Assembly (NCBI GenBank): GCA_964603475.1
Contig: CAZRVG010000001.1
Span: 1 to 61,987 of the forward strand
Length of the DNA stretch: 61,987 nucleotides
Direction of reading: 5' to 3'
Source of the DNA: an uncultured Candidatus Saccharibacteria bacterium
GTDB taxonomy: Bacteria; Patescibacteriota; Minisyncoccia; Minisyncoccales; UBA5738
Shown here: positions 10,315 through 61,987 of the stretch, piece after piece
How the letters are laid out: the number at the start of each line of letters is the position of its first letter
How positions within the stretch are numbered: position 1 is the stretch's first letter
The notes under the pieces: generated by a model
Database searches by the model: none
What the model was told of the DNA's origin: nothing
What the model saw: the letters and a program-made list of their open reading frames with translations, nothing else
Translations under genes and position numbers: made by a program

Positions 10315-10393
10315 ACATCAAACCCTGAACTTTAAAGCCTGAACTTTAAACTTTGACCATTAAAAATCGAACTTTGACGCTTATCAACCCTTC

Positions 10394-10434
10394 AATAAAT
10401 TGCGTGGGTCTGACCCACGCAAAAAAACATATGA
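10394..10434 (+). repeat. Left ~40-bp direct repeat containing the family A palindrome TGCGTGGGT-CTG-ACCCACGCA and ending at the transposase ATG
   Basis: aataaattgcgtgggtctgacccacgcaaaaaaacatatga. Confidence 0.92.
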
Positions 10435-11210
10435 GCATTAAAGTTGAACCATTTACGGTAGGCGATTATATCCATGCGTATAATTGCGGCAACAAAAAAG
10501 CGCAAATATTCTTTGACAAGTCGGATTATTGGCGGTTTTCGTGGTGCCTAAGATTTTTTAATGACCAAAGAAGTATTTATGATTTTGCCAAATGCTTAAC
10601 CGATTTAGTCTATGAACAAAAAGAAATCTTGCAAAAATTGCGTGGGTCTGACCCACGCAGAAAGGCACCCTATCTGGATGGACGAAATACTTTTGAATGG
10701 CGAACCGAAGAATGGGGAGAGCAACAGCCATTAGTTCAAATAATATCTTATCATTTGTCGCCAAATCACTTTCATTTGTTTTTAAAAGAGATTATTTCTG
10801 GCGGTATCAGTAAATTTATGCAAAAAATCGGCGGGGGATATACTGTTTACCGAAACTTAAAAAGCCATGAAGCTGGAAGAATATTTCAAGGCAGCTATCG
10901 CGGGAAGACAATAAAGGATGAAAGATACTTTCAATATTTAGACGCGTATATTCAGGTTTTCAATGCTTTTGAGCTTTTTGAGGGCGGAATTTTAAACGCC
11001 CTCAACCATTTTGACGAAGCGTTTCAATTCGCGCTGGATTATCCGTTCTGTAGTCTGGGCGAATCATTCGGAATAAGAAATTTGGGAATTGTTAATAGGA
11101 GCTCTTTCCAAGAGAAATTTCCAAATTTAGAAACATACAAAGAATTTTGCCGCGACGCATTATTAACCCGGAGTGTCCGTGAATTTTTGGGTAAATTAAC
11201 CCTGGAATAA
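10431..11210 (+). mobile_element. REP-associated tyrosine transposase-like (RAYT / Y1 HUH) gene; likely start is ATG 10431
   Basis: YIHAYNCGN...IF..DY.RF, YHLSPNHFHL (HUH), IFQGSY, AYIQ (catalytic Tyr); flanked by palindromes. Confidence 0.85.
10639..10659. repeat. Family A palindrome inside the transposase CDS (encodes LRGSDPR)
   Basis: tgcgtgggtctgacccacgca, identical to 10400-10421 core. Confidence 0.92.
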
Positions 11211-16283: not shown

Positions 16284-16712
16284 ATGGATAGGAAAAAGAT
16301 AGGAAAAGGAGCTATTGAGTGGATCTGCAGAATTTTTATCATAGCATTACTCTCAGTAGCATTAGGATCTGCCTTCATAGACAGAGCCGACCTTGCGAAG
16401 CAAATGCTTTGGGATATCTCTTGTATTGGTGGAGCAATATTGATTGCCGTTATTGTCGCAAAACACATCAAGCGGCAAGGCGGATGGGCAACTGATATTG
16501 TGATAGCATTTTTTGTTTCACTATTTGCATTAAGAATTGCGGTTGTGCTATCGGATATATTCTATTCAGCGATAGAAGCCACTCAATCCTTAATGGCAGT
16601 GGAAAATGCTACGGCGGCGCTTGGATCGTCTTTAGCGCTTATCGTAATAGCCATACTTGCGATAGATGGCTTATATCAACGATATAAAAGACAATCTGCT
16701 TCATCAACATAG
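16284..16712 (+). CDS. Hypothetical 4-TM membrane protein, atypical codon usage
   Basis: Own promoter and GGAG SD; frequent ATA/GCA codons unlike its neighbours. Confidence 0.7.
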   Translation: MDRKKIGKGAIEWICRIFIIALLSVALGSAFIDRADLAKQMLWDISCIGGAILIAVIVAKHIKRQGGWATDIVIAFFVSLFALRIAVVLSDIFYSAIEATQSLMAVENATAALGSSLALIVIAILAIDGLYQRYKRQSASST

Positions 16713-19565: not shown

Positions 19566-20231
19566 ATGCTTTCCGAAAATAAAGTTAATATTTATATTGA
19601 CGGCGGTAATTTTCATCACTTGGCATTAAAAAAGATCGGAGGCGAAGAATTGAATTTTGATTTTGAGGCATTTGCAAATTTTTTGTCAGAAACAAGAATA
19701 ATTCCTGATATGGGCAAACGTTTCTATGTCGGCACGGTAAGAGAAAAAGCTGGTGATGGGCGCAGTAAAGAAATAATGGCGCGGCAAACAAAATTATTCA
19801 CTTTATTGCGAGCGAGCGGCTGGGAACTAAAAACGAGCAAACTAAGATTGAGAACGGAAAAAATTACGATCGATGCCAGAGTTGAGGACTTTAAAAATAT
19901 TCTTAAGGCAGGAATCAAAGAAATCAAAATGGTTAGAATAAGAGAGAAGGGCATAGATGTTAAAATTGCAACCGATTTGATTGTCGGCGCGCTTGATAAC
20001 AAATATGACACTGCGATTCTTGTCAGTTCGGACACCGATCTTGTTCCCGCGATGGATTGGGTTCGAAAAAGGTTGAATAAAAAGATAGAATATATTGGTT
20101 TCTCAATCGAGAATAATCATCTTAAAGAAAAAACAATGCCGTCTCAAGGGATGATATCGCATTCCGATATTCAAAGAATATTAGTTCAATCAGATATAGA
20201 AAAATTTATGCACCCCTCTTTGTTTCGATAA
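19566..20231 (+). CDS. NYN domain (LabA/DUF88) protein
   Basis: IYIDGGNF, EKGIDVKIATD, LVSSDTDLVPA motifs. Confidence 0.9.
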   Translation: MLSENKVNIYIDGGNFHHLALKKIGGEELNFDFEAFANFLSETRIIPDMGKRFYVGTVREKAGDGRSKEIMARQTKLFTLLRASGWELKTSKLRLRTEKITIDARVEDFKNILKAGIKEIKMVRIREKGIDVKIATDLIVGALDNKYDTAILVSSDTDLVPAMDWVRKRLNKKIEYIGFSIENNHLKEKTMPSQGMISHSDIQRILVQSDIEKFMHPSLFR

Positions 20232-38308: not shown

Positions 38309-39451
38309 TTAAAGACCGCCCGCCGACAATTTCGGCTGGCGTGAAATATTCAGTAAAAAGCCTGCTGCAATTAATTCAATCGCAATCGCGGTTCCGCCAT
38401 AACTTATAAACGGCAAAGGTATGCCGCTCAAAGGTAAAAGGCCGATTGTCGCCGAAATGTTGATCATCGCCTGCAAAACAATCCAAAACGTTATGCCAAA
38501 AGCCGCCAAATATTGAAATTTATTTTGGCTTTTTTTAGCGATTATAAACCCGCGCCACGCAAAAACTGCAAAAATAGCGATGAGCGCCATACCGCCGACT
38601 AAGCCGAACTCATGGGCATATGGCGCAAAAATTGAATCGCCGATGAGTTCGGGCAATAACGAATACTTTTGCGAAGACGCACCCATACCCTGCCCAAAAA
38701 CATCCCCCGAACCGACAAGCATCATCGCCTGCTTTGATTGAAAATTCTTGCCCAACGGATCGGATTCCGGAGAGAGCCAAGAAGAAAGGCGGTCGAGTCG
38801 ATATGATTCCGAACAAACAAGCAAAGCCAAAAGAGCAATACCGGCCAAAACCATAAAAAAACTGTGCTTTAAAGGAGTGCCGGAAAGAAAATACATTATA
38901 AATGCCGTGAGCGCGATCACGCCAAACGTGCTCAAATCCGGCTGCTTAATAAGCAAAAATCCGATAACTCCCACCACAAGCAAAAACGCCGCCAGAGTGT
39001 CGCCAAACATTTGCCCCGATTTTTTTTTGTCGGATCTCCGTTCCGATCGCGAGGCAAGCCAGCTGGCAAGATAAACGATAAAAGCAAGTTTCAACAATTC
39101 CGAAGGCTGAACCGTCGCCACCCCCAAATTAATCCACCTCTGCGCCCCGCCGGCGGAAAATCCAACCCCCGGAATAAAAACCGAAACCAAAAATAAAACA
39201 CAAGCAAGAAGAAAAAACGGTGCCAGTTTGCGCCATAATTTCAACGGAATTTTATAGGCCGCGATACCGGCAACAATGCCGGGTAGAATGCCCATCATAA
39301 TTTGGTGGCGGATTAAATAATAACTGTCGTGATATTTCGATTGCGATAGTAACGCCGAAGCGCTAGATAAAATCATCACTCCCAATACAACCGCCGCGGC
39401 CACCGCCGCCAACATAATAAGATCGGGTTTTAGTCGCTGTTCTCTAGTCAT
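38309..39451 (-). CDS. ftsW: SEDS protein FtsW
   Basis: GAQRWI, QPSELLK, QPDLST, PLPFISYGG. Confidence 0.92.
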   Translation of the reverse strand: MTREQRLKPDLIMLAAVAAAVVLGVMILSSASALLSQSKYHDSYYLIRHQIMMGILPGIVAGIAAYKIPLKLWRKLAPFFLLACVLFLVSVFIPGVGFSAGGAQRWINLGVATVQPSELLKLAFIVYLASWLASRSERRSDKKKSGQMFGDTLAAFLLVVGVIGFLLIKQPDLSTFGVIALTAFIMYFLSGTPLKHSFFMVLAGIALLALLVCSESYRLDRLSSWLSPESDPLGKNFQSKQAMMLVGSGDVFGQGMGASSQKYSLLPELIGDSIFAPYAHEFGLVGGMALIAIFAVFAWRGFIIAKKSQNKFQYLAAFGITFWIVLQAMINISATIGLLPLSGIPLPFISYGGTAIAIELIAAGFLLNISRQPKLSAGGL

Positions 39452-40799
39452 GGCCGCCTTTTTTAATGTTTGATTGCGCCATTAAGCAATTTTTAAAACA
39501 TTCCCCGCGATGCGCGTAATCGCGAAAATTGCCAAAACTTGCCGAAGCCGCGGAAAGCAAGCATATTCTCCCCTTTTGCGTTTTTTCAAGCGCCAAATCG
39601 ACCGCAACATTCATTTTTGAGACAAAAAAGGGCGAAATTCGCGCCAAACATTTTTTTTGTCTATCCGCAGCCGCTTCAACAGATTCCCAAATCCTTTTTC
39701 CTGTCTCCGGAAAAAGAATCAAAGTTTTTATTTTGCTCGCCAAGATTTTATCGGCCAGCTTGCCAAAAGGCTGTCCCCGATCAAACCCTCCGGCAATCAA
39801 TGTTTGCGCTCTATCGCCAAGAGCGTCAATTGCCGCGATCGCGCTTTCTTGAATAGTTGATAGCGAGTCATTATAAAAATCAATGCCGTTAAAATTGCCG
39901 ACAAATTCCAATCGATTGCCAAGCGGTCTAAACTCCGCGATCGCGCTATCAATATCCTCGTCCGAAATCTTTAGCAACCTCCCGACAATCACGCCAACTT
40001 TGGCGTTTTCCAAATTAAAATCGCCGATTAAATTCACTTTTTTGGAAAAATTCCATTTACACTCGTTAAAAGCGATCTTATTTGCCGCCGATTCTTGAGC
40101 AATTTGGCGGGCTTCATTGTTGGCAGAATTATAGACAAAATAATCTTCTTTTGATTGATGAATAGCTATATTCGCCTTTGCGCGAATATATTCGCTGTAG
40201 TCTTTGTAATAATCCAAATGCTCCGGATATATATTCAATAATACCGCAACATGCGGACTTTTTCCCATATTATAAAGCTGATGCGCCGAAAGCTCACAAA
40301 TAAAGATAGTTTCTTTATCCGCACCATCTAAAAATTGCAGCATCGGCGTTCCGATATTACCCGCCAAAAAGGTTTTTTTACCCGACCTCTTAATAATTTC
40401 ATAAATTATCGAAGAAACTGTGCTTTTACCTTTTGTTCCGGTAACTCCGATAATTATTCCCGGGCAGTAATTAAAAAATATTTCCGTTTGCGAAATAATT
40501 TTTTGCTCCTGATAAGCTTTTTCGATCTCGGAAATGTGAATGGGAACCCCCGGAGATTTAACAATAACATCATAATCATTCAAGCACGATAAATAATTTT
40601 GCCCCAAACATAATTTGACTTGATGATTTTGTTCAAAGATCTTTTTCAATTCGGGATTTAATTGCCCAACTTCGCTTTTATCGGCCGCACCAATCTCATT
40701 TTGTGGATATTTTGCAAGAAAAAAACGCAGGCTTTCCATCCCCTCTCTGCCCAACCCCAAAATCAATATTTTTTTATTTTCAAAATCGATACCATTCAT
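39444..40799 (-). CDS. murD: UDP-MurNAc-L-Ala:glutamate ligase (MurD, possibly MurD2-type)
   Basis: ILGLGREG, SPGVP, GVTGTKGKST, AGNIG, ELSAHQL, YNDSLST, SFGNFRDY. Confidence 0.93.
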   Translation of the reverse strand: MNGIDFENKKILILGLGREGMESLRFFLAKYPQNEIGAADKSEVGQLNPELKKIFEQNHQVKLCLGQNYLSCLNDYDVIVKSPGVPIHISEIEKAYQEQKIISQTEIFFNYCPGIIIGVTGTKGKSTVSSIIYEIIKRSGKKTFLAGNIGTPMLQFLDGADKETIFICELSAHQLYNMGKSPHVAVLLNIYPEHLDYYKDYSEYIRAKANIAIHQSKEDYFVYNSANNEARQIAQESAANKIAFNECKWNFSKKVNLIGDFNLENAKVGVIVGRLLKISDEDIDSAIAEFRPLGNRLEFVGNFNGIDFYNDSLSTIQESAIAAIDALGDRAQTLIAGGFDRGQPFGKLADKILASKIKTLILFPETGKRIWESVEAAADRQKKCLARISPFFVSKMNVAVDLALEKTQKGRICLLSAASASFGNFRDYAHRGECFKNCLMAQSNIKKGGHD

Positions 40800-40808
40800 G
40801 GTTTTTCG

Positions 40809-40854
40809 TGTTGAAATCAAACTTCAACAAGATTGTTGAAGTTTGATTTCAACA
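40809..40854. repeat. Family B REP-like inverted doublet upstream of the murD start
   Basis: tgttgaaatcaaacttcaaca-agat-tgttgaagtttgatttcaaca, exact reverse complements. Confidence 0.92.
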
Positions 40855-50365: not shown

Positions 50366-52576
50366 TTAATTTTTGGGCCAGCTTTCAACAATTAGGTCGG
50401 TTTTGTTTTTCAGGGGCAGGGCGCGCCAGAGTTCTTCGGTGATAAACGGCATAAAGGGGTGTAGGAATTTGAGGGAATTTGCCAAAACGTAGATTAAAAT
50501 TTTTTGTGAGTTTTGCGCTTCATCCTTCTTCTTGGGTTCGCGGATTTGGTTTTTTGCCGCTTCAATGTAGACATCGCAAAACTCGTGCCAAAAGAATTCA
50601 TAGAGATCGCGAATCGCGTGCCCGAAATCATATGCGTTAATCTTTTTTTCGGTGGATTTGGCAATTTTTGCCAATCCGGAAAGAATTTTGCGGTCCGCGG
50701 CGGTGATTGGCTTGGGTTTTGCGGTTAGCGAATATATATTCTTTTTGCCGTTTTCCAACTGGAAAAGCACAAAACGCGCGGCATTCCAAATTTTGTTGCA
50801 AAACTTGCGGCCGGAAATCATCGTGTCCTCGTTGAAATGAATATCTTGCGATTCGCTGATCTGCCAAGCCAATCCGAATCGAGTGGCATCGGTGCCGTAT
50901 TTTTCAATCAGCATCATCGGATCAATGCCGGTACCCAGAGATTTTGACATTCTTCTGCCGTCTTTGGTCAAGACCATGGCATTGATAATCACTCGCGAAA
51001 ACGGGGCTTTATTCATAAATTCCATACCCGAGAACACCATTCGCGCCACCCAAAGATTGATAATATCACGACCAGTGGTCAAAACTGAGGTGGGATAAAA
51101 CTTTTTCAAATCTTTGGCGCTTTTGGGCCAGCCAAACACCGCCAGCGGCCACAATGCCGAAGAAAACCACGTGTCAAAAACATCCTCGCTGCGCTTCATT
51201 TGACAATTTTTGCCCCTCGCTTCGCTCGGGACTCGCGCGTTCCGCGCTTCGCAAAACGGGCACTTTTTGGGTTCTTTTGAGGCAATAACATATTTATCGG
51301 GCTCGGCCTCGCAAAACCACACCGGCAAACGCTGTCCCCACCACAGCTGGCGCGACACGCACCAGTCGCGCGGCTCTTTGAGCCACGCGTAATAGGTTTT
51401 TTCCCATCGTTTGGGATGAAATTTCACCTTGCCCGATTTTGCCGCTTGCAAAGCCTTTTTTGCCAATTCATCCATTTTCACAAACCATTGCATTGACGGA
51501 ATCAACTGAATCGCCGCGCCGCAACGGGAGCATTTGGGCATTTGGTGGGCATAATCCTCTATTTTTTCCACCAAACCCATTGCTTGCAAATCTTTGACAA
51601 TCTTTTGCCGGGCATCAATGGCTTTTAGTCCGCGGTATGCTTCAGGGGCGTTATCATTCATTTTGCCCCGCTCGTCAATCACGGAAATCAGCGGCAGTTT
51701 GTGTTTTTGCCCGATCTGCCAGTCGTTTAGATCATGGGCGGGAGTGATTTTTACCGCGCCGGTGCCAAAATGAATATCAATGGAATTGTCGGCAACAATC
51801 GGAATGACGCGGCCAATAATCGGCAAGACCGCGTTTTTGCCGATTAAATCCTTGTAGCGGCTGTCTTTGGGATTAACCGCCACGGCAGTGTCGCCCAAAA
51901 GCGTTTCCGGGCGCGTGGTGGCCGCCGTGATATATTTTTTCGGTTGATTTTCAATGGGGTATTTCAAATACCAAAGCTTTGAATCCTCGGCGGTGTAATC
52001 GGTTTCCAGATCCGAGATGGACGTGCCGCAACGCGGACACCAATTCACCACGCGCTGGCCGCGATAGACCCACCCTTGCTTGTGGTAGTGCGCGAAAGCG
52101 GCTTCCACCGCGCTGACATAGTCTTCATCCATGGTGAATTTGGTTCTTGACCAGTCGCACGATGCCCCCATGGCGCGAATTTGATTTAGAATAATATTGC
52201 CGTATTCATCGCGCCAATCCCACGCTCTTTTGATGAATTTTTCGCGCCCCAAATCAAAACGACTCACGCCTTCCTTGCGCAATTTTTTTTCCAGCGTGCT
52301 TTGGAGCCCGATGCTGGCATGATCGGTTCCCGGAATCCAAACCGACGCTTCGCCTTTCATGCGGTGATAGCGCACCAACGCATCTTGAATGGTGATATTC
52401 AGCGCGTGCCCCATATGCAATGTGCCGGTGACATTTGGCGGCGGCAAAACCACCGAAAAAACTTTCTTGCTTTTCGGTTTGATTTTGTCGGGATTGAAAT
52501 AGCCTTTCTTCTCCCAATTTTGATAGATTCTTTTTTCCGTCTCTTTTGGATCATATCGATTCGGCAAAGTTTCCAT
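50366..52576 (-). CDS. valS: Valine--tRNA ligase (short, no C-terminal coiled coil)
   Basis: PPNVTGTLHMGH, GTDHA, DWCVSRQLWWG, DTWFSS, RMSKS. Confidence 0.97.
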   Translation of the reverse strand: METLPNRYDPKETEKRIYQNWEKKGYFNPDKIKPKSKKVFSVVLPPPNVTGTLHMGHALNITIQDALVRYHRMKGEASVWIPGTDHASIGLQSTLEKKLRKEGVSRFDLGREKFIKRAWDWRDEYGNIILNQIRAMGASCDWSRTKFTMDEDYVSAVEAAFAHYHKQGWVYRGQRVVNWCPRCGTSISDLETDYTAEDSKLWYLKYPIENQPKKYITAATTRPETLLGDTAVAVNPKDSRYKDLIGKNAVLPIIGRVIPIVADNSIDIHFGTGAVKITPAHDLNDWQIGQKHKLPLISVIDERGKMNDNAPEAYRGLKAIDARQKIVKDLQAMGLVEKIEDYAHQMPKCSRCGAAIQLIPSMQWFVKMDELAKKALQAAKSGKVKFHPKRWEKTYYAWLKEPRDWCVSRQLWWGQRLPVWFCEAEPDKYVIASKEPKKCPFCEARNARVPSEARGKNCQMKRSEDVFDTWFSSALWPLAVFGWPKSAKDLKKFYPTSVLTTGRDIINLWVARMVFSGMEFMNKAPFSRVIINAMVLTKDGRRMSKSLGTGIDPMMLIEKYGTDATRFGLAWQISESQDIHFNEDTMISGRKFCNKIWNAARFVLFQLENGKKNIYSLTAKPKPITAADRKILSGLAKIAKSTEKKINAYDFGHAIRDLYEFFWHEFCDVYIEAAKNQIREPKKKDEAQNSQKILIYVLANSLKFLHPFMPFITEELWRALPLKNKTDLIVESWPKN
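51211..51252 (-). repeat. GAA-triloop mini-hairpin cluster in-frame in valS (ARNARVPSEARG)
   Basis: Minus strand GCGAAGC, GCGCG-GAA-CGCGC, CGA-GCGAAGC-GAG. Confidence 0.6.
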
Positions 52577-52660
52577 ATTTTTTAACAAAATATAATATTT
52601 TCAACGCTATCAAATTAGCACGCAAGCGGTCAAAAATAAACCCCTTCCCTCGCGGGTAAA

Positions 52661-54334
52661 TCATTTACCGGTTTGAGCAGGTTCGCGATCATCCATGGGC
52701 AATTTAATGATAAAAGTGCTCCCCTTGCCCCAGCCTTCGGATTCCACGCGGATTTCACCACCATTGGTTTTTATCATTTGTGCCGCTAAATACAACCCAA
52801 TACCCTTGCCGTTGATATTAACGTTTTTCGCTTTCGTGCCGCGTTCAAAAACTCGCTCAAAAAGATCTTGCTGCTCTTTTTCATCCATCCCGATGCCGCT
52901 ATCGGCCACCGACACGCGCAAACAATTATCGCAAACACTCATCGAAACCAACACTCCGCCCCTATCGGTATACTTGATCGCGTTGTCAACGATATTATAA
53001 ATCGCCTCGCGGATACCATGGATATCGATATTGATCAAAGGCGTCGGCGCATTGGGCTTTTTAAACCGCAAGTATATTTTTTTTTCTGCGGCATTCTTTT
53101 TTAAATCCGCAATAACTTCGGAAACCAACCCAACCACATCGGCAGGCTCTTTGGCCGCCATCTCCTTGTTCATTTGAAAATGCGCCACATCCAAAAGATC
53201 GTTAATCAACCGAATCAGTTTTTGTGTTTCCTTCAAGGACGTACCGATCTTTTCTTTGGCCTTGGCCGAAATCCGTCCATAATCACCCTCGTTTATCATG
53301 CTCAAATAACCCTGCACCACCGATAGCGGACTGCGCAAATGATGCTGGGTGGAAAGCAAAAATTGCGTCTTGGCCGCATCAATGCGCCTTAAATCTTCGG
53401 CCAACCTCTCCGCCTCCCCGCGCAACTCCCGCTCCCTCGCCGCCACCAATTCCGCCTCCTCCCGCCTCTTGCTCTCTTTGAGGGTTGTTCTAATAAGACA
53501 ATAACCGAAGAAAGAAAACAAAATTAGAACCCCGGCCGAAATAATTTTTAGAACAGTTGTCGGCATTAAAAAAAATTGGGTTGCCAGAATAATACCCATC
53601 AGTCCAACCAATATCTCGGTCAAAATAACCCTAACGTCAAAGAGATGATATTTAAGAATCGCCAAAGCGATTATCGTCACAGCAACAATTTCAGCCCAAT
53701 AAGCTCCTATGGGATTAATATTTAAATTATATGCAGGTAAAAAAGCATACGCCCCCAAATTTAATATTATAAACGCCACAAATAAAAATTTTACCGATTT
53801 GATATTTTCTTTTTCATTATTAGTTCCAAAATTATCGCGGCATTTTAAAAATAAATATCGATATATTTCAAATAAAAATAAAAATATATAGGCTGAATAA
53901 AAAACTAAAAATAAATGGTGGAAAATACCCGCCTGCGTGTGATACCCCCATTCATAATAATACAAACCAGAAATAAAATTATCCGTCCTGCTCAGAACAA
54001 GAAACAAGAAAGAGAGAAAGTAGCCAAAAAGAAGTTTGAATTTATTTTTAATCTCCCTGCGGGTAAAAATAAGGCCGAAATGATACATCAACACCGGAAC
54101 AAAAACAACTCCGACATAAACCATTCTATCCCAAAAAATAATATCCTTCTCACATCCGCTAACATACATCATGTGTGTTGACAAAAGCCAATTTGACATT
54201 GCAACACAAAAAACTAGAAAAATAATATTTAATTTTTTTTGAATATTTTTCCAAAAAACAAAAACGCCCAGCACTATCATTAACAAGCCGCTGATTAACG
54301 CAGAATATGAATTAACAAGCAATAATATATCCAT
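52661..54334 (-). CDS. Sensor histidine kinase with a multi-TM (HisKA_7TM-like) N-terminus
   Basis: H-box QHHLRSPL, NIVDNAIKY, DSGIG, GKGIGL, GKGSTF. Confidence 0.92.
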   Translation of the reverse strand: MDILLLVNSYSALISGLLMIVLGVFVFWKNIQKKLNIIFLVFCVAMSNWLLSTHMMYVSGCEKDIIFWDRMVYVGVVFVPVLMYHFGLIFTRREIKNKFKLLFGYFLSFLFLVLSRTDNFISGLYYYEWGYHTQAGIFHHLFLVFYSAYIFLFLFEIYRYLFLKCRDNFGTNNEKENIKSVKFLFVAFIILNLGAYAFLPAYNLNINPIGAYWAEIVAVTIIALAILKYHLFDVRVILTEILVGLMGIILATQFFLMPTTVLKIISAGVLILFSFFGYCLIRTTLKESKRREEAELVAARERELRGEAERLAEDLRRIDAAKTQFLLSTQHHLRSPLSVVQGYLSMINEGDYGRISAKAKEKIGTSLKETQKLIRLINDLLDVAHFQMNKEMAAKEPADVVGLVSEVIADLKKNAAEKKIYLRFKKPNAPTPLINIDIHGIREAIYNIVDNAIKYTDRGGVLVSMSVCDNCLRVSVADSGIGMDEKEQQDLFERVFERGTKAKNVNINGKGIGLYLAAQMIKTNGGEIRVESEGWGKGSTFIIKLPMDDREPAQTGK

Positions 54335-54344
54335 TTGATAAAAT

Positions 54345-55382
54345 TTATTCGCGAAGGATCAAATTCCCGTTTAGTTTTTTACCAAAACTGTGATATATAT
54401 CGATTTTAAATTGATCGGAATATTTATCCATTAATTTCAGCATCTTTCTTGCTAATTCAGGTGTTGTAAATCCAACATAATTATTTTTATTTTCATCCAT
54501 TGCCAAAAGCATCGTTTCGGCCAAGCAAGCATATGCTTGATGCCTTTTAAGACCAATATTAACGCCAAAATCAATTGATGGCACATTAACTATGCCGCCG
54601 TCAATAATAGTGGCATCCGGCCTTTTTTTGAGTAATTCAGGGGAAGTATTACGAGGCTGGGTTATGTCATAAATAATTGCATTTTGTTTCAAATGGTCCG
54701 CTCTTATTAATTGATCCATCGAAGATGTTGCAATTACGGAAATATCGGCATATTTGATTGATGCGGTATCTGTTTCAATCCGCACTTTTGGATATGAAAA
54801 AAATCTTTTTTCTAGTTTCTTGCTTTTTTGCGGCCTATCAACAAGCAAAACATTGAGACCTCTTTGAATTAATAACTCGGCTACGCCTTGGCCGATGGAG
54901 CCGGCCGCACCAACAATGGCGACTTGAGCTTCGGCAGTATTAATTTTTTTAATTTCAATAATTTTTTCCACCGCCCTAAAAACAACACCCGTGGTAAGGG
55001 AATTGCCACTGGTAATACTGACCCCTTCAACCAATCCCACCAAATCCCTACCACCATGAGTCACGGAAGCAGTGAACTCTCCCAATCCAATAACTTTTGC
55101 TCCCAAATCTTTCATCATTTTAATCGCTTTGACGAGTCTGACAATAACTATTTTTTTCGGCAAAGTTAAAATTTGCTCCCCCAAAAGAGGAATCCAGACA
55201 ATCCATCCGATCAATTCGGTTTTATTATTTTCAAATTTCACTCTTCCTGCCTTAATCGGCCCAAGAAAAGTAATGATTTTTTTCAAAATAAATTCGGGAA
55301 ATAACAAAAAAAACGGCGATACCTTGCCCATATCCTCCCTTGCTGAATGACGTGGATGAACTAAAAACGCAAATTTATTCAT
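54345..55382 (-). CDS. NAD(P)-binding reductase, COG5322 / acyl-ACP reductase-like
   Basis: FAFLVHP start, GLGEFTAS, TSGNSLT, GAAGSIG, DITQPRN, ACLAETMLL. Confidence 0.72.
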   Translation of the reverse strand: MNKFAFLVHPRHSAREDMGKVSPFFLLFPEFILKKIITFLGPIKAGRVKFENNKTELIGWIVWIPLLGEQILTLPKKIVIVRLVKAIKMMKDLGAKVIGLGEFTASVTHGGRDLVGLVEGVSITSGNSLTTGVVFRAVEKIIEIKKINTAEAQVAIVGAAGSIGQGVAELLIQRGLNVLLVDRPQKSKKLEKRFFSYPKVRIETDTASIKYADISVIATSSMDQLIRADHLKQNAIIYDITQPRNTSPELLKKRPDATIIDGGIVNVPSIDFGVNIGLKRHQAYACLAETMLLAMDENKNNYVGFTTPELARKMLKLMDKYSDQFKIDIYHSFGKKLNGNLILRE

Positions 55383-55664
55383 TGTTTAATAAAATTTTAA
55401 AATAAAATATTGATAAATTGGCGGATTACGGGGAGGTATTCAAAAATTGCCCATACCAAGATCGCGAAAAAACCGACAATCAAAATAAAATCTATCAATT
55501 TGTTCATAGAGAATACTGTTTGTTTTGAAACGTATTATTTTTATTATACTCTAAATTTTATCGACTTCAAATTTATTCAAAAAAAACAACGCAAGCTTTT
55601 ATTCCGCGCCGCCAAATTTGGTCAAGGTGAAACCTTGCCACACTTTTTTCCGCCCGGCGCCGCC

Positions 55665-57962
55665 TTAAAGCTTGATTCGCTCCAAGCCGTTAATCAGTAA
55701 TACCGCGATCGCCTCATCAATGTTATTCCTGCCGGCCATTCTCTGGATTTCTTTAATCACCAAATCAATGTGCTTGTTGATGATTTTTTCTCGCGCTTTT
55801 ATCATTGCCATTTTGGCGTTGGCCGGCAATTTGCGGGCTTGTGTTTTTTCCAACGCCTCAAACTGATTCCGCAGAATTGCAAACTGCGCCGCCAAAATAA
55901 TTTTTTGCGGCGTTTTGATTAACCCCCGCGCGGCAAAGCGGTCAAAATCGCTTATCAATTCGTCAATGGTGAAAACATCGTCTTGGGCGAATTTTTGCTC
56001 ATATTCGCCATCGCCGCCGCCGTCAATTTCCAGCACGGTTTCTTGCTCTCCGATTTCCAATATCCCGCGCAAGTTTTTATCAACTGGAATGGCGAAAAAC
56101 ACGCGCGGTTCTTGGGGAATGTCGTTTTCAATCGCTTGGGCGGTTAAAGTGAATGTTCCCTGCCCGGTGCCTTGCAAATCAATTTGGTATTCTTGGCCGT
56201 TTCCCTGCGGCAGATAGACATACTTTTTCTCGCCGTCAACATCAAATGCCGCGCCGGGGATCTCGTTTTTGGGACCGACATTGCCCACGTCCTCAATGAC
56301 ATTGCCAAAATTATCGGTAATTTTTATCGCCAGCGGGCTTTCAATTTTAATCGTGGTGCCATAGAGTTTGCATAATTTGTCATTGGCCAGCAATTGCGCG
56401 CGGGTGATAATTTTGTTGTTGGGAACGGCGATATTGCCGCCGGTGATTATGCTGGCAATCTTTTGGCGCGCGCCGTCAAAAGAAGGCATTTGCCCGTGCT
56501 TTGTTTCGGGCGCGTAGAAAGTGTTGGCATCGCTTGCCAAGGCAAGATTTGCCGATTCAAACGGCACCGTGTCATCGCCGTTGGCGATGGCAAAAAAATC
56601 ATAGCGGATGTGAACCCCGTCGGCATTAACCCAATCGCTTAATGTTGAAAAAACCGCCGATTTGCATCCGGCGATGTTGTAGCTGTCAATGCCTTTGGCC
56701 AAAAAATCATCGGCGGTCATATCATCCAAATCCGAATGCAAGCCAATCGCCCGATTGGTTGCGGTGTTGTTTGTCCCCGCTCCCGCCAAATACAAGCGGG
56801 TTTGGAGATAATCCAACTCCTCGGTTTGGTTAATTCCCCATATTGCCGCGGGCTTGACTTTGCGTATCCAAGAGCCCTTTTTGGAAAAGTATTGTTCGCT
56901 GGGTAAAAGATCATAGGCCGCGGGCATATTTTGCGCGATCTTTTTTAGCTCCGCGGGGTTAAGGCCAAACACTCCAAAATCCGTGCCGCTGATTAACGCC
57001 CTGCCCGCCAGCGGCGCGCCCAAATTGGGCACCCCCGCGAATACCAGCTTGCCGATTTTGGGTTGGCCATAATCGGCGACATATTTTTTGGCAATCAACC
57101 CGCCCAAGCTGTGAGCAATCACATCAACCTTGCCCGTGGGAGAAATTTCGGCCAGCCGGGCAATCCGCTTCGCCAGCAAATCGCTGTTGGCAATGTCGCG
57201 CCCGGTATAATTATCCGGTTTTGGATAAATCCCGCTGGCGCCATACCGCCAATCATAAGGAAAAGTATAAAAAGTCTGATCGTCGGCCCCCTCCTCGGCA
57301 ACATACCCCTGCCCCTCAAACTCATCAATCAACCCCTGCGAATATTCATATAAAACAATTTCATTATTTCCTACAATTTTAACTTTTTTATCAATTACAC
57401 CAAGCAATGAAGTATCAAATAACGGCTTAAGATGATCTCCGAATGCCAATGGATCCATAAACTCATCATCATTAAATGGATTAATCATCTTTTCGATATC
57501 CACCCATAATAATTCATTATCTCGCTTAATCTCCGTGCTTAACAGCCCCGGCACAAATAAAACCGGCGTTTTGGACAGAATTTTGGCATCCGGCGCCGGA
57601 TCAAAAAATTCGGCGGGCGGGGCCACCAAATCAATGGTGATTTCTTCTTGAGAATGGCAAAGCACCGCCTCATCGGTTGGCAAGCGGAAAACCGCCTCAC
57701 TCGTATCAAGAAAATCATCGGGAGGCAATTGCAAATCGATTGTTGCATCCTCGTCGCTATGACAAAGCACTGCTTCATCGGTTGGCAAGCGGAAGTTCGC
57801 CTCGTCAGCATCAAGCAAATCGTTAGGCGGCATCACCAATGCTATCGTTGTGGTGGCACTGGCGCCTTCAATGATAATTTCGGGCAAATCCTGCGCCCAA
57901 GTGCGCGCGAACAAAAACACCGCAATTGGCAAAAATATAAATAAAGGAAAATGCTTTTGCAT
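55665..57962 (-). CDS. Secreted alpha/beta-hydrolase (LCAT/PGAP1 lipase-like) with N-terminal acidic repeats
   Basis: Signal peptide; VLFVPG, FPYDWR, IAHSLGG, GVPNLGAP, GDDTVP, H in TKHG. Confidence 0.85.
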   Translation of the reverse strand: MQKHFPLFIFLPIAVFLFARTWAQDLPEIIIEGASATTTIALVMPPNDLLDADEANFRLPTDEAVLCHSDEDATIDLQLPPDDFLDTSEAVFRLPTDEAVLCHSQEEITIDLVAPPAEFFDPAPDAKILSKTPVLFVPGLLSTEIKRDNELLWVDIEKMINPFNDDEFMDPLAFGDHLKPLFDTSLLGVIDKKVKIVGNNEIVLYEYSQGLIDEFEGQGYVAEEGADDQTFYTFPYDWRYGASGIYPKPDNYTGRDIANSDLLAKRIARLAEISPTGKVDVIAHSLGGLIAKKYVADYGQPKIGKLVFAGVPNLGAPLAGRALISGTDFGVFGLNPAELKKIAQNMPAAYDLLPSEQYFSKKGSWIRKVKPAAIWGINQTEELDYLQTRLYLAGAGTNNTATNRAIGLHSDLDDMTADDFLAKGIDSYNIAGCKSAVFSTLSDWVNADGVHIRYDFFAIANGDDTVPFESANLALASDANTFYAPETKHGQMPSFDGARQKIASIITGGNIAVPNNKIITRAQLLANDKLCKLYGTTIKIESPLAIKITDNFGNVIEDVGNVGPKNEIPGAAFDVDGEKKYVYLPQGNGQEYQIDLQGTGQGTFTLTAQAIENDIPQEPRVFFAIPVDKNLRGILEIGEQETVLEIDGGGDGEYEQKFAQDDVFTIDELISDFDRFAARGLIKTPQKIILAAQFAILRNQFEALEKTQARKLPANAKMAMIKAREKIINKHIDLVIKEIQRMAGRNNIDEAIAVLLINGLERIKL
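57632..57848 (-). repeat. Intragenic 35-aa (105-bp) tandem repeat, ~2.3 copies
   Basis: FRLPTDEAVLCHS occurs twice, 35 aa apart. Confidence 0.85.
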
Positions 57963-57973
57963 AGTTTTATATA

Positions 57974-58285
57974 TTAAAATTGGATATTTCTAACTGCGTA
58001 AAATAAATATAAAAGATACCCCAATTTTAAAAAACAAAACGATAAAAATAGTAAAATAAACAAATAGAAAATATTTTTTATTTTCTTAAAATTATAAATA
58101 CTAAATAATAATCCTAAACAGCCAAGAAACTGTAAAAGCACTACAATGGTCAGTAAAATTCTATTACCAATATTAAATATTTCTTTATCAATACTCCACA
58201 ATCCAAGTATTGGGCTCCACAAAATTTCGGGGACCAAAAACATCGCCCCGAAAATTGCCAGCCATATTTTTTGCTTTTTTGTCAT
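57974..58285 (-). CDS. Hypothetical 3-TM membrane protein, very AT-rich
   Basis: Hydrophobic ORF directly upstream of the lipase-like gene. Confidence 0.65.
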   Translation of the reverse strand: MTKKQKIWLAIFGAMFLVPEILWSPILGLWSIDKEIFNIGNRILLTIVVLLQFLGCLGLLFSIYNFKKIKNIFYLFILLFLSFCFLKLGYLLYLFYAVRNIQF

Positions 58286-58306
58286 ATTGTTTTGTTATTT
58301 TTTGTT

Positions 58307-58327
58307 TGGTGAGGTTTGACCTCACCA
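58307..58327. repeat. Family D palindrome TGGTGAGGT-TTG-ACCTCACCA
   Basis: Perfect 9-3-9 palindrome. Confidence 0.9.
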
Positions 58328-58329
58328 GA

Positions 58330-58464
58330 TTATTTCACCAATGCTATCGTTGTGGTGGCACTGGCGCCTTCAATGATAATTTCGGGCAAATCCTGCGCCC
58401 AAGTGCGCGCGAACAAAAACACCGCAATCGGCAAAAATAAAATAATTTCAATTCTAAATTTCAT
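58330..58464 (-). CDS. 44-aa mini-ORF duplicating the lipase signal peptide (MKFRIEIILFLPIAVFLFARTWAQDLPEIIIEGASATTTIALVK)
   Basis: 58335-58439 matches 57833-57937 at 104/105 nt. Confidence 0.6.
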   Translation of the reverse strand: MKFRIEIILFLPIAVFLFARTWAQDLPEIIIEGASATTTIALVK

Positions 58465-58581
58465 TTGTTTATTATTATGGCAAATTACCGAAACTTACAG
58501 CAAAAAGCAAATAACACAACGCCATTAACAATATAATACCAATGCGAAACCCCTGCCCCTACGCCCCATAAGCTCAAAATC

Positions 58582-58752
58582 CATTGCACCTTTCGGGCGA
58601 AAGATTCCATCAAGCGCCCATTGTTCATCCGCGATCTCAACATTAAAAATAAAATCGCCGGAAATCCGACCGCCCATTGCCCCATCACCCATTCCCCATC
58701 GCCCATTCCCAGCGCGTAAAATTCATTGCACCTTTCGGGCGAAAGATTCCAT
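58582..58752. repeat. Two 29-bp direct repeats cattgcacctttcgggcgaaagattccat (58582-58610, 58724-58752) around a 7-mer tract
   Basis: Direct reading. Confidence 0.85.
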
Positions 58753-58782
58753 TGCGTTATCCGGCGGGCAAAAAAAAGGCGG

Positions 58783-59049
58783 TTAGCGCAATAATTTGAG
58801 CAAAGCGGATATTTCGGGGCGCGGGTTATCGGCAATGCGGTAGTGGGCTTGCTGGCCGGCTTGATCGCGGTCAACAATGTCGTTGGCAAATAAAATCACC
58901 AAATGTTTTGACGCGGCTTTATAGGAACAGCCGGCGGCATCTTTTATCATCCCCACCGAGGCCCCGTCGCGGCGGCCCAAAAGATATTTCACGATTTTGA
59001 GCCGATTCGCGTTGGCAAGCGCTTTGAAAATTTTTTCAATTTTTTTCAT
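58783..59049 (-). CDS. ArsR/SmtB-family transcriptional regulator
   Basis: FKALANANRLKIVKYL...ASKHLVIL...YRI. Confidence 0.88.
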   Translation of the reverse strand: MKKIEKIFKALANANRLKIVKYLLGRRDGASVGMIKDAAGCSYKAASKHLVILFANDIVDRDQAGQQAHYRIADNPRPEISALLKLLR

Positions 59050-59111
59050 CTTGATTTTCACTTTAAAAATCACACCCTTCCATATTTTTATGCTAACAAA
59101 TTCCGCCGTTT

Positions 59112-59140
59112 TATTCCACCTTTCGGGCGAAACATCCTAT
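59112..59140. repeat. CACC-TTTCG-gg-CGAAA-CATCC motif, copy D, upstream of arsR
   Basis: Matches copies at 49082, 58587 and 58729. Confidence 0.75.
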
Positions 59141-59187
59141 CTCATTGCACTGCCGCGTCCGCAAGCCGTAATAATAAACACAAAAAA

Positions 59188-60636
59188 CTATTTGCCGCAG
59201 CATTTTTTGTATTTTTTGCCCGAACCGCAAGGACAGGGCTCGTTTCTTCCCGGCGTTTTGGCGTCGATAATTGAAACTTTGTCTTTTGTTTCTCCCTTGG
59301 TGGCAAAATTTATTTTTAGATTTTTTATGAAATAATAAAATTCCATCGCAGGATCTTCTTCCAAAAAAAATCTAAAACGCTTTTTTTGCTCTCGTTTACC
59401 TAATTTGCCTAATTTGTCTAATGAACCGAAAAGAATCATCTCGTCATAATCTCCTTTGTCAAATTTATCTTTCATTTTCAAGGCAAAACTGTAATTGGGG
59501 TTTAATTCCAAGGCGATATCCAGCATCATCGCGCCTTCCAATCGCTGGCCGCAGGCAAAATGGCAGACCGCTTTGTTAGCAAAAAAACGAAAGGTATCCG
59601 GCCGCACCACAAAATTTTTGCGCATCGCGGCAAACGCCTTTTTCCAAATTTTTAGCGCCTTTAAAAAATCATTTTGATTCATCAATTTGTGGGCGTTTTG
59701 CACAAAGGGATACCAACAATCATCGCCGATTTGTCGCGCGTCGGAATAAAGTTGCGGCCGATAGTTTGGATTTTCAAACATCTTTTGCCGCGGAGTTTTG
59801 CCTCCCAGCTTTTCATTGGGTGAATTATTTTGAAAATCAAAAAACGCTTCAATCAGCTCGTTAAAATCATCGTCAAAACCGTGATCAACAGCCAAATACT
59901 GCATAATTGCCACAATGTCCAGCGGCTTCATATTATTTTTTTGCCACCAATCCGCCACAATATCCGGGCTGATATGATCTGCCAGAGCAAATTTTTTTAA
60001 TGCTTTTGAAAAATTCTTGCGCGCGGTTTCAAGATCGGCAACATCGGCTTTTGCAAGCGCCTCTTCATCGTCATCGGCCAAAAGAGAAAATGCCAAGCGC
60101 GGAGTAATTGGATCTTGTCCGCCAAACGCCATTTCTTTCCATGACTTCGTGCTTTTGGTAATCGGCAAAACCGCAGGATCCGCGCCCACCAACTCCCAAT
60201 ATTCTTCTGTTCGCGCCACGCGATTCAAAAATATGTTTCCCTTTCGAATGTTTTGCGTCAACGCCTTTTCTTGAACAAAAAAGTCTTGCCCCGTGCGCAG
60301 ATCGCGAATATCCAGACCTTTATCGCGATAAACCTTCAAAACTTCAAACGCGCCATATCGGTTCGTTGAGCAAAGATCTAAATATGTCTTTTTTTCTCTG
60401 CCGGAAAATTCGGATTCGCGGCGATGGCAATAATCTTCCAAAACCGTAAGGCCGTTGTTCAGCCGAAAATCAAAAACCAGCCATTCGTTCATCACCGCTA
60501 ACTGCATTTCGTTGATTTGCACAGGATGTTTATTTCCAAAAAAATCGTCCAACGCCCGCTGAATCTCAGGATGCCCAACGGGATAAAGTTCAAAGAAATC
60601 GTCTAAAACATTTGATATTGTCCCTTTTGCCAACAT
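59188..60636 (-). CDS. SEC-C motif protein with a TPR-like region
   Basis: C-terminal PGRNEPCPCGSGKKYKKCC. Confidence 0.85.
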   Translation of the reverse strand: MLAKGTISNVLDDFFELYPVGHPEIQRALDDFFGNKHPVQINEMQLAVMNEWLVFDFRLNNGLTVLEDYCHRRESEFSGREKKTYLDLCSTNRYGAFEVLKVYRDKGLDIRDLRTGQDFFVQEKALTQNIRKGNIFLNRVARTEEYWELVGADPAVLPITKSTKSWKEMAFGGQDPITPRLAFSLLADDDEEALAKADVADLETARKNFSKALKKFALADHISPDIVADWWQKNNMKPLDIVAIMQYLAVDHGFDDDFNELIEAFFDFQNNSPNEKLGGKTPRQKMFENPNYRPQLYSDARQIGDDCWYPFVQNAHKLMNQNDFLKALKIWKKAFAAMRKNFVVRPDTFRFFANKAVCHFACGQRLEGAMMLDIALELNPNYSFALKMKDKFDKGDYDEMILFGSLDKLGKLGKREQKKRFRFFLEEDPAMEFYYFIKNLKINFATKGETKDKVSIIDAKTPGRNEPCPCGSGKKYKKCCGK

Positions 60637-60744: not shown

Positions 60745-61987
60745 CTATTTGGATAATATTTTTTGGGTTTGGTCGTAGATGTTGCCCGCGCCCAGCACCA
60801 GCAGAATTTCGCCGCCTTTTATTTCGCGTTTCAAAGTTTTTGCGATTTCTTTTTCAGGAAGATATTTGACGCTGTCGCGGTTGATGGCGGCAGTCAATTT
60901 TTGGCTGTCTATTTTTTTAGAAATTTTTTCGTTTTCTCGGCCGGCCACTTGATAAATGTTGGTGATAAAAATTTTATCCAGCGATGAATCTTGAAAAACT
61001 TTTACAAAATCGTCAAAAAGCAAATGCGTGCGCCACGCCTGGTGCGGTTGAAAAACACAAATTATTTTTTTGTTGGGCCAAAATTTTCGCGCGGCATCCA
61101 TGGTCAATTTAATCTGCGTGGGGTGGTGGCCATAATCAAAAACCGCGGTGAATTTTTTGCCGTTGATTGCCGCTTTTCGGCGGTCAAACCGCCGCCACGA
61201 ACCGCGGTATTTTGCCAAAGATTTGAAAATGGTTTCATCATTGATTTTCAACATTCGACCGACGACGAGCGCGGCCAGCGCGTTGGCAACATTGTGCTCC
61301 CCGGGAACGCGCAAAATTTCGCGCAAAATTTTTGCCTCGGGCATTGCGCGCGAATAATTGAAAACTTCAATCCCCTTTTTTTCCGCGGCTTGCCCCAGCC
61401 TTTCGGCGCCGTGGTTATCGGCGCAAACCACAAGCTTGCCGCCGGTTTTTATGTTGCCGGCAAATTTTTCAAACGCGCCAAACAATTTTTCTTCATTTTG
61501 ATAACATTCGATGTGATCCATTTCAATATTGGTCACCACCGCGATATCCGGAAAATAATTCCAAAACGCTTGGCAATATTCACACGCCTCAACTACCAGC
61601 AAATCCGATTTTCCGGCACGAAAATTCGTATCCCCGAATTCTTTCACTTTGGTGCCCACAATAACTGCGGGGTCTTTTTTTGCCGCGGCGAGCATCAATC
61701 CGATCATCGCCGCGGTGGTGCTTTTCCCATGCGCTCCGGCCACGGCAATCGTTCGGTGTTTTTTGGTAAGTTTCCCCAGAGCTTGCGGATAGCTCATCGC
61801 GGCAACCCCCAAATCCAGCGCCTGTTTTAATTCCAAATGATCCTTTTTTACCGCCAAGCTATAAACCACCAAATCGGGCGCGATTGATTTTAAGTTCGCG
61901 GTTTTTTTAATAAAAACGCGCGCGCCAATTTCTTCAAGCGCTTTTGTAATTTCGGAAGACGCCAAATCCGAACCGAAAACCTGCCAC
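60745..61987 (-). CDS. murC: UDP-MurNAc--L-alanine ligase (5' end beyond the window)
   Basis: VAGAHGKSTT, VVEACEY, TNIEMDH, DYGHHPT, FQPHQ, GAGNIY. Confidence 0.95.
   Translation of the reverse strand, partial: WQVFGSDLASSEITKALEEIGARVFIKKTANLKSIAPDLVVYSLAVKKDHLELKQALDLGVAAMSYPQALGKLTKKHRTIAVAGAHGKSTTAAMIGLMLAAAKKDPAVIVGTKVKEFGDTNFRAGKSDLLVVEACEYCQAFWNYFPDIAVVTNIEMDHIECYQNEEKLFGAFEKFAGNIKTGGKLVVCADNHGAERLGQAAEKKGIEVFNYSRAMPEAKILREILRVPGEHNVANALAALVVGRMLKINDETIFKSLAKYRGSWRRFDRRKAAINGKKFTAVFDYGHHPTQIKLTMDAARKFWPNKKIICVFQPHQAWRTHLLFDDFVKVFQDSSLDKIFITNIYQVAGRENEKISKKIDSQKLTAAINRDSVKYLPEKEIAKTLKREIKGGEILLVLGAGNIYDQTQKILSK

Follow-up and report, generated by a model that had tools for sequence, protein, structure and literature searches.

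A patescibacterial locus in which an enzyme gene and the sensor half of a 7TM histidine kinase form one exchangeable cassette on a conserved kinase core

The stretch of DNA analysed here (the window) comprises 61,987 nt from an uncultured Candidatus Saccharibacteria bacterium (Patescibacteriota; GCA_964603475.1, CAZRVG010000001.1, positions 1-61,987). Patescibacteria are ultra-small, mostly host-attached bacteria that are often described as clonal and genome-reduced. The window contains a three-gene operon, consisting of a small membrane open reading frame (ORF), an enzyme gene and the gene of a seven-transmembrane (7TM) histidine kinase (Table 1). Within this operon, one recombining cassette is made up of the enzyme gene together with that part of the kinase gene which encodes the sensor half; it is set between the conserved small ORF on one side and the conserved linker and core of the kinase on the other. 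An earlier description of the same sequence (the first-pass annotation) had placed the enzyme and kinase genes 10 bp apart, in agreement with the ORF coordinates (gap 54335-54344). In what follows, WIN denotes the window locus, L001-L174 are relative loci, and X3 and X4 are landfill metagenome runs.

Table 1. Features of the locus, with positions in the window
Feature	Position	Strand	Description
Enzyme gene	54345-55382	-	345 aa, ORF list; thioester reductase-like enzyme of the AAR/PigE-N type, NAD(P)H-dependent (COG5322); belongs to the variable block
Kinase gene	52661-54334	-	557 aa, ORF list
Sensor half, kinase aa 1-286	53477-54334	-	PF16927 plus two extra transmembrane helices; variable
Linker, kinase aa 287-320	53375-53476	-	GC-rich coiled coil, ESKRREEAELVAARERELR...; first conserved kinase segment; downstream crossover site
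Resident kinase core	52661-53374	-	HisKA/DHp aa 321-385; HATPase_c aa 437-548
Exchangeable cassette	53477-55403	-	bounds from two coexisting alleles; allele A (that of the window), 1927 nt
Small ORF	55397-55507	-	36 aa, single-pass membrane ORF, MNKLIDFILIVGFFAILVWAIFEYLPVIRQFINILF; conserved frame; overlooked in the first-pass annotation
Promoter-like site	55543-55570	-	TTGAAG, 16 nt, TATAAT; 10/12 consensus matches, pattern match only
ValRS	50366-52588	-	downstream frame marker; 77-86% identical in L087, L089 and L170-L174
Mur ligase	60745-61965	-	upstream frame marker; parted from the small ORF by an insertion (55665-60636)

The enzyme contains an NAD(P)-binding Rossmann domain with the nucleotide-binding motif GAAGSIG. 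A profile built from its relatives matches residues 47-349 of PigE (4ppm; E = 1.2e-44) and residues 37-332 of the long-chain acyl-ACP reductase AAR (6jzq; E = 2.6e-33), while the best NCBIfam match of the enzyme itself is the PigE N-terminal region (133.8 versus a cut-off of 850). Its segment 'yaCLaET' aligns with 'FACFAEAM' of AAR, so that Cys286 lies opposite the catalytic Cys294; this Cys286, together with G158, A159 and G161, is invariant in 31 homologues. AAR works via an acyl-Cys294 intermediate, which NADPH then reduces, and the PigE domain is currently believed to turn a thioester into an aldehyde (PMC10829540). The window enzyme is like both in belonging to the same fold family over nearly its full length and in keeping the catalytic Cys and the NAD(P)H motif. 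It is unlike them in lacking a fused transaminase and in having a sensor kinase as its partner: no aldehyde-deformylating oxygenase lies beside the enzyme gene, which is flanked by the small ORF and the kinase gene. Judged from its sequence, the window enzyme would produce an aldehyde from a thioester.

The kinase combines HisKA_7TM (PF16927), HisKA and HATPase_c domains (54.3, 41.2 and 79.3 bits against Pfam cut-offs of 28.6, 26.9 and 26.4, respectively), and all of its catalytic boxes are present (QHHLRSPL, DNAIKYT, DSGIGM, FERVFERG and GKGIGL for H, N, G1, F and G2). H331, N451, D478, G480, G482, G509 and G511 are invariant, and the sensor half carries a conserved aromatic- and His-rich beta-hairpin loop at aa 117-140. 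The AlphaFold2 model of the kinase (predicted local distance difference test score, pLDDT, of 82) has nine transmembrane helices and a hairpin at aa 121-135; the sensor half scores mostly 86-96, with lower values of 59-65 in two loops (aa 161-180 and aa 231-240). In this model, a single continuous helix (aa 260-348) runs from the last transmembrane segment through the linker junction into DHp helix 1. When the model was searched against the PDB with Foldseek, the top matches were the DHp-CA structures of HK853, WalK and CpxA, with the DHp-CA part of the kinase being the only part matched. A metagenome scan with the linker and core returned only generic kinases at 41% identity or less. HisKA_7TM is listed among the sensor domains of archaeal kinases (PMC5847659).

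The two halves of the kinase gene differ in base composition. The first-pass annotation had described the enzyme gene and the sensor half as AT-rich next to a host-like core, quoting G+C counts of 11/60 at 53761-53820 and 33/60 at 52861-52920, and both counts were reproduced exactly. Because hydrophobic proteins are AT-rich for trivial reasons, the observed G+C at third codon positions (GC3) was compared with the value expected from the amino acids of each segment and the codon usage of the other 54 window ORFs. The enzyme gene has a GC3 of 0.31 where 0.48 is expected (z = -6.4), the lowest among the 56 window ORFs, and kinase aa 1-285 have 0.28 where 0.47 is expected (z = -6.5). In contrast, the core (aa 321-557) has 0.52 against an expected 0.47 (z = +1.5), and the linker (aa 286-320) has 0.80 against 0.50 (z = +3.8). 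The compositional difference therefore survives the correction and is far larger than chance would give, and the switch, which had been put at the coiled-coil linker, falls within 53375-53476. The AT-rich block also extends past the enzyme gene to ~55600, which had been overlooked. The same pattern is found in relatives: the GC3 of the enzyme and 7TM domain lies below that of the Mur ligase, core and ValRS in 9/9 loci examined.

It could be argued that this pattern is an artefact of hydrophobic codons and low expression in an ordinary, vertically inherited kinase. Transmembrane codons in the other window genes do show a mild GC3 deficit (0.449 versus 0.505), and relative to one close lineage (L001, below) the cassette is as old as its flanks. 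However, hydrophobic-residue codons are ruled out as the sole cause of the AT richness, since the deficit persists after the amino-acid correction and holds for the soluble enzyme as well. The discordant trees, the coexisting alleles and the near-identical cassette on diverged flanks that are described in the following paragraphs also speak against an artefact, and we give it a negligible probability.

The window is present in landfill metagenomes, and there two alleles of the cassette are found. In X3, the unitig of allele A (53420-55382) has a depth of 106.7 and that of allele B (1895 nt) a depth of 102.4, against ~226 in the flanks; X4 contains the same bubble, with depths of 11.3 and 12 against 23-28 in the flanks and an allele B unitig of 1757 nt. 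Both alleles persist together, at a ratio of about 1:1, within a single landfill population. The allele B unitig of X3 matches the window only at 53420-53476 and 55404-55486, and the 1755 nt between these ends are unlike the window. One breakpoint lies exactly at kinase codons K286|E287 and the other within the final two codons of the small ORF. Allele B is in frame ('...SYYLIIAVEG' followed by ESKRRE...), and a new gene begins in it 12 nt past the stop codon of the small ORF ('ATGACGGAGGA'); from length alone, we infer an enzyme of ~300 aa. The 30-nt junction sequences of allele B match none of the compared loci or proteins.

Allele A itself has moved between backgrounds. The window and X3 differ at 2/1963 positions in the cassette and at 86/5078 positions in the flanks (Fisher p = 3e-10), and the window cassette is thus 99.9% identical on a background whose flanks have diverged by 1.3-5.6%. 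The presence of the same cassette on diverged backgrounds requires recent recombination. The differences end at 53418, which puts the downstream crossover within the linker, at 53418-53476. Whatever the function of the locus, recent homologous recombination is directly documented by the two alleles found together and by a cassette that is 99.9% identical between backgrounds with diverged flanks. The DHp-coding stretch 53094-53417, which adjoins the cassette, differs at 18/324 positions (5.6%), compared with 1.3% in ValRS and the rest of the core and 0.1% in the cassette, which suggests that 53094-53417 is a further recombination tract from a third donor.

The exchange is also visible among related Patescibacteria. 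The site has a common gene order (LigT, Mur ligase, membrane ORF, enzyme or enzymes, 7TM kinase, ValRS, in some cases RadC, AspRS, S11, MraY, MurL), and it holds at least 8 different blocks of enzyme plus sensor. With enzyme families assigned by Pfam and NCBIfam, the cassettes contain an AAR-like enzyme of type 1 (WIN, L001 and L089) or type 2 (L007 and L008), a remote AAR-like enzyme (L170), an AAR-like enzyme together with a GMC oxidoreductase (L087), a Methyltransf_31 enzyme (L171), a Methyltransf_20 enzyme that is 25% identical to that of L171 (L172), a 4HBT_2 hotdog thioesterase (L174) or a 553-aa protein (L173). The AAR-like reductases at the site fall into three deeply diverged types, and the two methyltransferases are unrelated to each other. 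The survey of enzymes preceding this core in relatives, which the first-pass annotation had proposed as a check, has accordingly turned up different enzyme families at the same site.

Identity to the window follows the same division. It amounts to 58-73% for the Mur ligase, 77-86% for ValRS and 61-71% for the linker and core, while the enzyme ranges over 20-79% and the 7TM domain over 25-83%. In pairwise comparisons among 11 loci, the cores are 55-80% identical and the 7TM domains of different cassette classes 20-34%. Across relatives, sensor identity follows the enzyme and not the core. L087 illustrates this well, being 69% identical to the window in the Mur ligase, 86% in ValRS and 71% in the core, as opposed to 33% in the enzyme and 26% in the sensor. 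Along the kinase, sliding identity to L087 is 7-33% over most of the sensor, apart from 40-50% at a conserved ILKxxLF motif (aa 211-240), and rises to 63-90% at aa ~285. This jump coincides with the first residue of the linker and with the GC switch.

Neighbour-joining trees with bootstrap were built for the separate segments. The ValRS tree groups WIN with L087 (93%) and L089 with L170 (100%), and the core tree likewise groups WIN with L087 (80%). In the 7TM tree, on the other hand, WIN is joined with L001 (100%) and L087 falls in a group with L170, L171 and L172 (100%), while the enzyme tree places L087 with L170 (99%). The linker and core follow the ValRS and Mur ligase trees, and the enzyme and 7TM trees agree with each other (bootstraps, enzyme/7TM: WIN with L001, 100/100; L007 with L008, 95/100; L087 with L170, 99/53). 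Homologous recombination in the flanks has placed many alternative pairs of enzyme and sensor at the same site in related Patescibacteria. The trees of the two kinase halves, whose congruence would have counted against the first-pass annotation, are discordant. The description of the kinase as chimeric in the first-pass annotation holds in this respect, that its halves differ in history; it does not hold for the domain order, which is ordinary and, with more than 100 homologues sharing the 7TM, HisKA and HATPase_c architecture, the norm of the family.

The closest relatives, L001-L004, have the same gene pair (enzyme 79%, 7TM domain 83% and core 68% identical) in a neighbourhood syntenic with that of the window (Mur ligase ... 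AspRS, S11 peptidase, MraY, MurL). Synonymous divergence (dS) between the window and L001 is 1.64 for the enzyme, 1.37 for the 7TM domain, 1.77 for the core and 1.15-1.42 for the flanks. Because dS is similar in cassette and flanks, the cassette is as old as the flanks relative to the L001 lineage, with no recent acquisition. Purely vertical inheritance was at first concluded from this synteny and dS, and was overturned by the segment-wise comparison with more relatives. The earlier proposal that enzyme and sensor domain were acquired jointly onto a resident core is supported by synteny, trees and coexisting alleles, evidence of unusual directness, although not as an event younger than the flanks where L001 is concerned. 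Between the window and L001, the ratio of nonsynonymous to synonymous divergence is ~0.07 in the enzyme and 7TM domain and 0.15 in the core, which points to strong purifying selection within a cassette type.

A scan with the enzyme alignment, restricted to one genome per species, found 80 loci (14 in Patescibacteria and 66 in other phyla). Wherever the sequence was available, a 7TM kinase starts -29 to +15 bp downstream of the enzyme in the patescibacterial loci (14/14), as opposed to 0/66 loci with such a 7TM kinase directly downstream of the enzyme outside Patescibacteria. The recurrent linkage of enzyme and kinase expected from the first-pass annotation is thus found. One patescibacterial locus has an interrupted enzyme: in L007, a Paceibacterota metagenome-assembled genome, the gene (1724-2797) is split by an in-frame stop into ORFs of 187 and 169 aa in the same frame, which reflects either a pseudogene or a sequencing error.

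These data also bear on whether enzyme and sensor are merely unrelated neighbours in a recombination hot spot that accepts any cargo, the sensor being hypervariable for reasons of its own such as phage or host contact. Other insertions do occur at the site (55665-60636 in the window, and extra genes in L008 and L174), and the small ORF and the flanks would supply the homology for recombination. Nevertheless, the block ends within the kinase gene, so that enzyme and sensor are always exchanged jointly; their trees agree; and in distant Patescibacteria outside this synteny the AAR-like enzyme still always precedes a 7TM kinase. A PADLOC search for defence systems gave nothing beyond a generic match to an ATPase domain. 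We regard the hot-spot explanation as quite improbable; it and the compositional artefact are contradicted by the data.

How might such a cassette work? We favour, with moderate confidence, an account in which an exchanged cassette supplies an enzyme-made ligand for its own sensor and the output is shared. In this account, each enzyme would turn an acyl-thioester or fatty-acyl-type precursor into a neutral small molecule that partitions into the membrane; the product would be an aldehyde in the window, by way of the AAR-like reductase, and would be made elsewhere by a methyltransferase, a thioesterase, or a reductase with a GMC oxidase. The co-inherited 7TM domain would bind the product of its own enzyme within the membrane, and the signal would pass along the continuous helix (last transmembrane segment, linker and DHp alpha-1) to the conserved core, which would phosphorylate one common response regulator encoded elsewhere. 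Lipid-derived ligands are favoured because every enzyme that can be identified (reductase, thioesterase, methyltransferase, alcohol/aldehyde oxidase) is suited to chemistry on acyl-thioesters or fatty-acyl groups, and a core that stays conserved implies that a single response regulator, unlinked to the locus, is shared. The ligand that each enzyme makes for its own sensor would be hydrophobic, and the locus as a whole would be pherotype-like, with many private signal/receptor pairs and one shared output. The lipid-signal communication suggested in the first-pass annotation is plausible as its function. With pherotype loci it shares a variable enzyme and sensor with a conserved kinase half, coexisting alleles on the same background, and conservation within types together with divergence between them.

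The best-known loci of this kind encode peptide signals. In Bacillus subtilis, variation affects comQ, comX and the 5' portion of comP (PMC6334282); as at the present site, the polymorphic block consists of the signal enzyme and the 5' membrane-sensor part of the kinase, the remainder of the kinase is conserved, and distinct types share one habitat (PMC6334282, PMC4408185). The comQXPA enzyme, however, is always the isoprenyl transferase ComQ, the signal is the ComX peptide, and ComA is adjacent, whereas the window locus changes its enzyme family, has no evident precursor peptide and no linked regulator, and resides in a Patescibacterium. The hypervariable region of staphylococcal agr spans agrB, agrD and agrC, and allelic groups are likewise set by a variable region that takes in the processing enzyme and the signal as well as AgrC's sensor part (PMC10482373); it is unlike the present locus in its peptide thiolactone signal, its HPK10-type kinase, the adjacent AgrA and the use of one enzyme family throughout. 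What sets the present locus apart from pherotype loci, which it resembles in genetic architecture, is the exchange of whole enzyme families, with no peptide signal or adjacent regulator evident, in a patescibacterial host.

Lipid-like signals offer a second comparison. CAI-1, which is lipid-like, binds in the transmembrane domain of CqsS (PMC13174287). In the alpha-hydroxyketone systems CqsA/CqsS of Vibrio and LqsA/LqsS of Legionella, the synthase gene adjoins that of a polytopic membrane kinase without a large periplasmic domain, and the autoinducer in the transmembrane domain shifts the last transmembrane helix, which is continuous into the cytoplasm (PMC13174287, PMC3285556). These systems differ from the present one in their pyridoxal-phosphate-dependent synthase and their six-transmembrane hybrid kinase with a receiver, and cassette swapping at a fixed site is undescribed for them. 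In Ralstonia, the histidine kinase PhcS senses a fatty-acid methyl ester that the methyltransferase PhcB produces as a signal (PMC8578825, PMC11960443), which provides a precedent for the methyltransferase cassettes of L171 and L172, the taxon and the kinase type being different.

An alternative to a diffusible product is that the enzyme protein is itself the co-sensor, binding its own sensor or kinase and reporting the state of a cofactor or substrate (NAD(P)H, S-adenosylmethionine or an acyl-thioester), with covariation arising from the shared interface. For CqsA, recent work found direct binding and inhibition of CqsS (PMC13174287), and the enzymes, although they vary widely in cofactor and chemistry, are always inherited together with a sensor that matches them. 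However, the kinase varies in its membrane-embedded part while the enzymes are soluble, with no predicted transmembrane helix; the obvious docking surface, namely the cytoplasmic linker and core, is the part that is conserved; and the catalytic Cys and the nucleotide motif of the enzyme are invariant. We consider a protein co-sensor unlikely. Much the same applies to private membrane-lipid homeostasis, in which the enzyme would remodel the cell's own (host-scavenged) lipids, the 7TM domain would monitor the membrane, and the cassettes would reflect different hosts or lipid supplies. All the enzyme types plausibly act on fatty-acyl groups, a secreted LCAT-like lipase is encoded directly upstream in the window, and in Paenibacillus and Cohnella the homologous enzyme has a two-component pair and an MMPL lipid exporter as neighbours. 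That lipase, though, belongs to a lineage-specific insertion missing from relatives, and alleles at ~1:1 on identical flanks in the same samples are better explained by frequency-dependent or social selection than by adaptation to a single lipid supply. Such homeostasis is, in our judgement, also improbable.

Several observations weigh against the account of an enzyme-made ligand for the co-inherited sensor. The enzyme scores 66.6 bits against the AAR equivalog cut-off of 449.7 (TIGR04058) and, falling far below it, is a distant relative of AAR and not an orthologue; the 553-aa protein of the L173 cassette matches no known family; and outside Patescibacteria, a Pyr_redox_2 FAD oxidoreductase of ~400-445 aa directly follows the enzyme in 57/66 loci. 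Allele B was characterized by its unitig length, depth, end matches and 30-nt junctions. Among 89 full-length kinase homologues, the identities of the 7TM domain and the core to the window are un- or negatively correlated, and the WIN-type core cluster covers 13 clusters of 7TM domains, but the sample was picked by query similarity and this bias alone can create a negative correlation; the genomic context of core-similar kinases was therefore compared, and it is the synteny and the population data that carry the argument. The six-frame translations of the window contain no receiver domain, consistent with the earlier statement that it encodes no response regulator, and no second kinase was detected in them; nor does any response regulator lie within 6-10 kb in 15 related loci. 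RNA runs were searched for the locus and none contained it. Patescibacteria are generally regarded as lacking fatty-acid synthesis.

Two wider readings are offered more tentatively. It is possible, if doubtful, that Patescibacteria run interchangeable private chemical languages, in which cassettes of a synthase and its matched 7TM receptor, fitted to one kinase output through recombination at the coiled-coil linker, would serve strain self-recognition or the recognition of host lipids under balanced polymorphism. Equally speculative, and in our view not the likeliest outcome, is that the signal chemistry itself (aldehyde, methyl ester, free acid or others) changes between alleles, unlike in known pherotype systems. 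We know of no quorum sensing described in Patescibacteria, and the searchable literature contains no description of this locus and no report of a ligand or a variable-enzyme linkage for HisKA_7TM. If true, this would be the first candidate system for chemical recognition between cells, or between cell and host, in the Candidate Phyla Radiation. Natural modular sensor engineering would be exemplified too, one kinase output being re-fitted repeatedly with enzyme and receptor pairs, with the cut at the very helix junction at which chimeric kinases are engineered. The orphan HisKA_7TM domain gains a testable ligand hypothesis, and matched enzyme/receptor pairs are a possible source of orthogonal small-molecule biosensors.

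The small ORF forms the upstream edge of the cassette. In 9 related loci it immediately precedes the enzyme gene, irrespective of the type of cassette, and it is absent from the more distant patescibacterial loci and from L173. Across relatives its length is 36-44 aa and its identity to the window 36-78% (78% in L087 and 75% in L001). Its base conservation shows codon periodicity (0.77/0.87/0.61 for the three positions), synonymous differences are numerous, and no Pfam family is matched. The ORF follows the frame, and only its C-terminal tail and last codons lie in the variable block. It is the only small ORF in the locus, and what it encodes is a conserved membrane peptide. The small membrane protein could, as a guess, be a partner of the kinase. 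The promoter-like site, also overlooked earlier, lies ~36 nt upstream of the small ORF and, by its sequence, is likely to mark the start of the operon.

On the downstream side, ValRS follows the kinase directly in L007, L087, L089 and L170-L173, with four genes lying between them in L174. The L174 insertion (7628-10958) encodes a SufS-like aminotransferase, SufE, a DUF4395 protein and a second kinase without a 7TM domain; this side of the site accepts insertions too. A GAF-ANTAR protein conserved near the locus in relatives was considered as the missing regulator and rejected: it has no receiver domain, adjoins glnA on the other strand and lies outside the window.

The window insertion upstream of the operon carries further genes. 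Directly upstream of the operon lies a gene for a 765-aa secreted LCAT-like alpha/beta-hydrolase (55665-57962, minus strand), the N-terminal part of which bears repeated 'FRLPTDEAVLCHS' units. In contigs of several landfill runs, many joints that vary in length occur between 56468 and 57579, which suggests a polymorphism in repeat number. A 103-aa multi-transmembrane protein (57974-58285, minus strand; GC 0.26, GC3 z = -4.5) has a homologue with the same N-terminus (MTKKQKIW...) at 5089-5334 of L008, a locus distantly related to the window, where it occupies the equivalent place, flanked by the Mur ligase and the small ORF. Between the lipase gene and the promoter, a palindrome-containing stretch at 55613-55647 (GGCAAGGTTTCACCTTGACC) is present in a single copy in the window; it is repeated across the community or the genome, since its depth in X3 is ~1192 against 226 in the flanks and many X3 unitigs break there.

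Outside Patescibacteria, loci with the enzyme and the Pyr_redox_2 protein are found in Deinococcota, Actinomycetota, Alphaproteobacteria, Bacteroidota and other phyla (L010-L083; e.g. L086 5001-9632), and the pair looks like a widespread two-gene module. In Paenibacillus and Cohnella, a kinase and a GerE regulator lie upstream of this module and an MMPL transporter downstream.

No tRNA genes, and no Rfam families at gathering score, were found across the whole 62-kb window. Other ORFs in the window with a significant GC3 deficit encode a 142-aa membrane protein (16284-16712; z = -5.3), an NYN-domain protein (19566-20231; z = -4.5), an IS200-like Y1 transposase domain (10353-11210; z = -3.7) and a Mur ligase (39444-40820; z = -4.0), and these four may be further accessory or exchanged segments.

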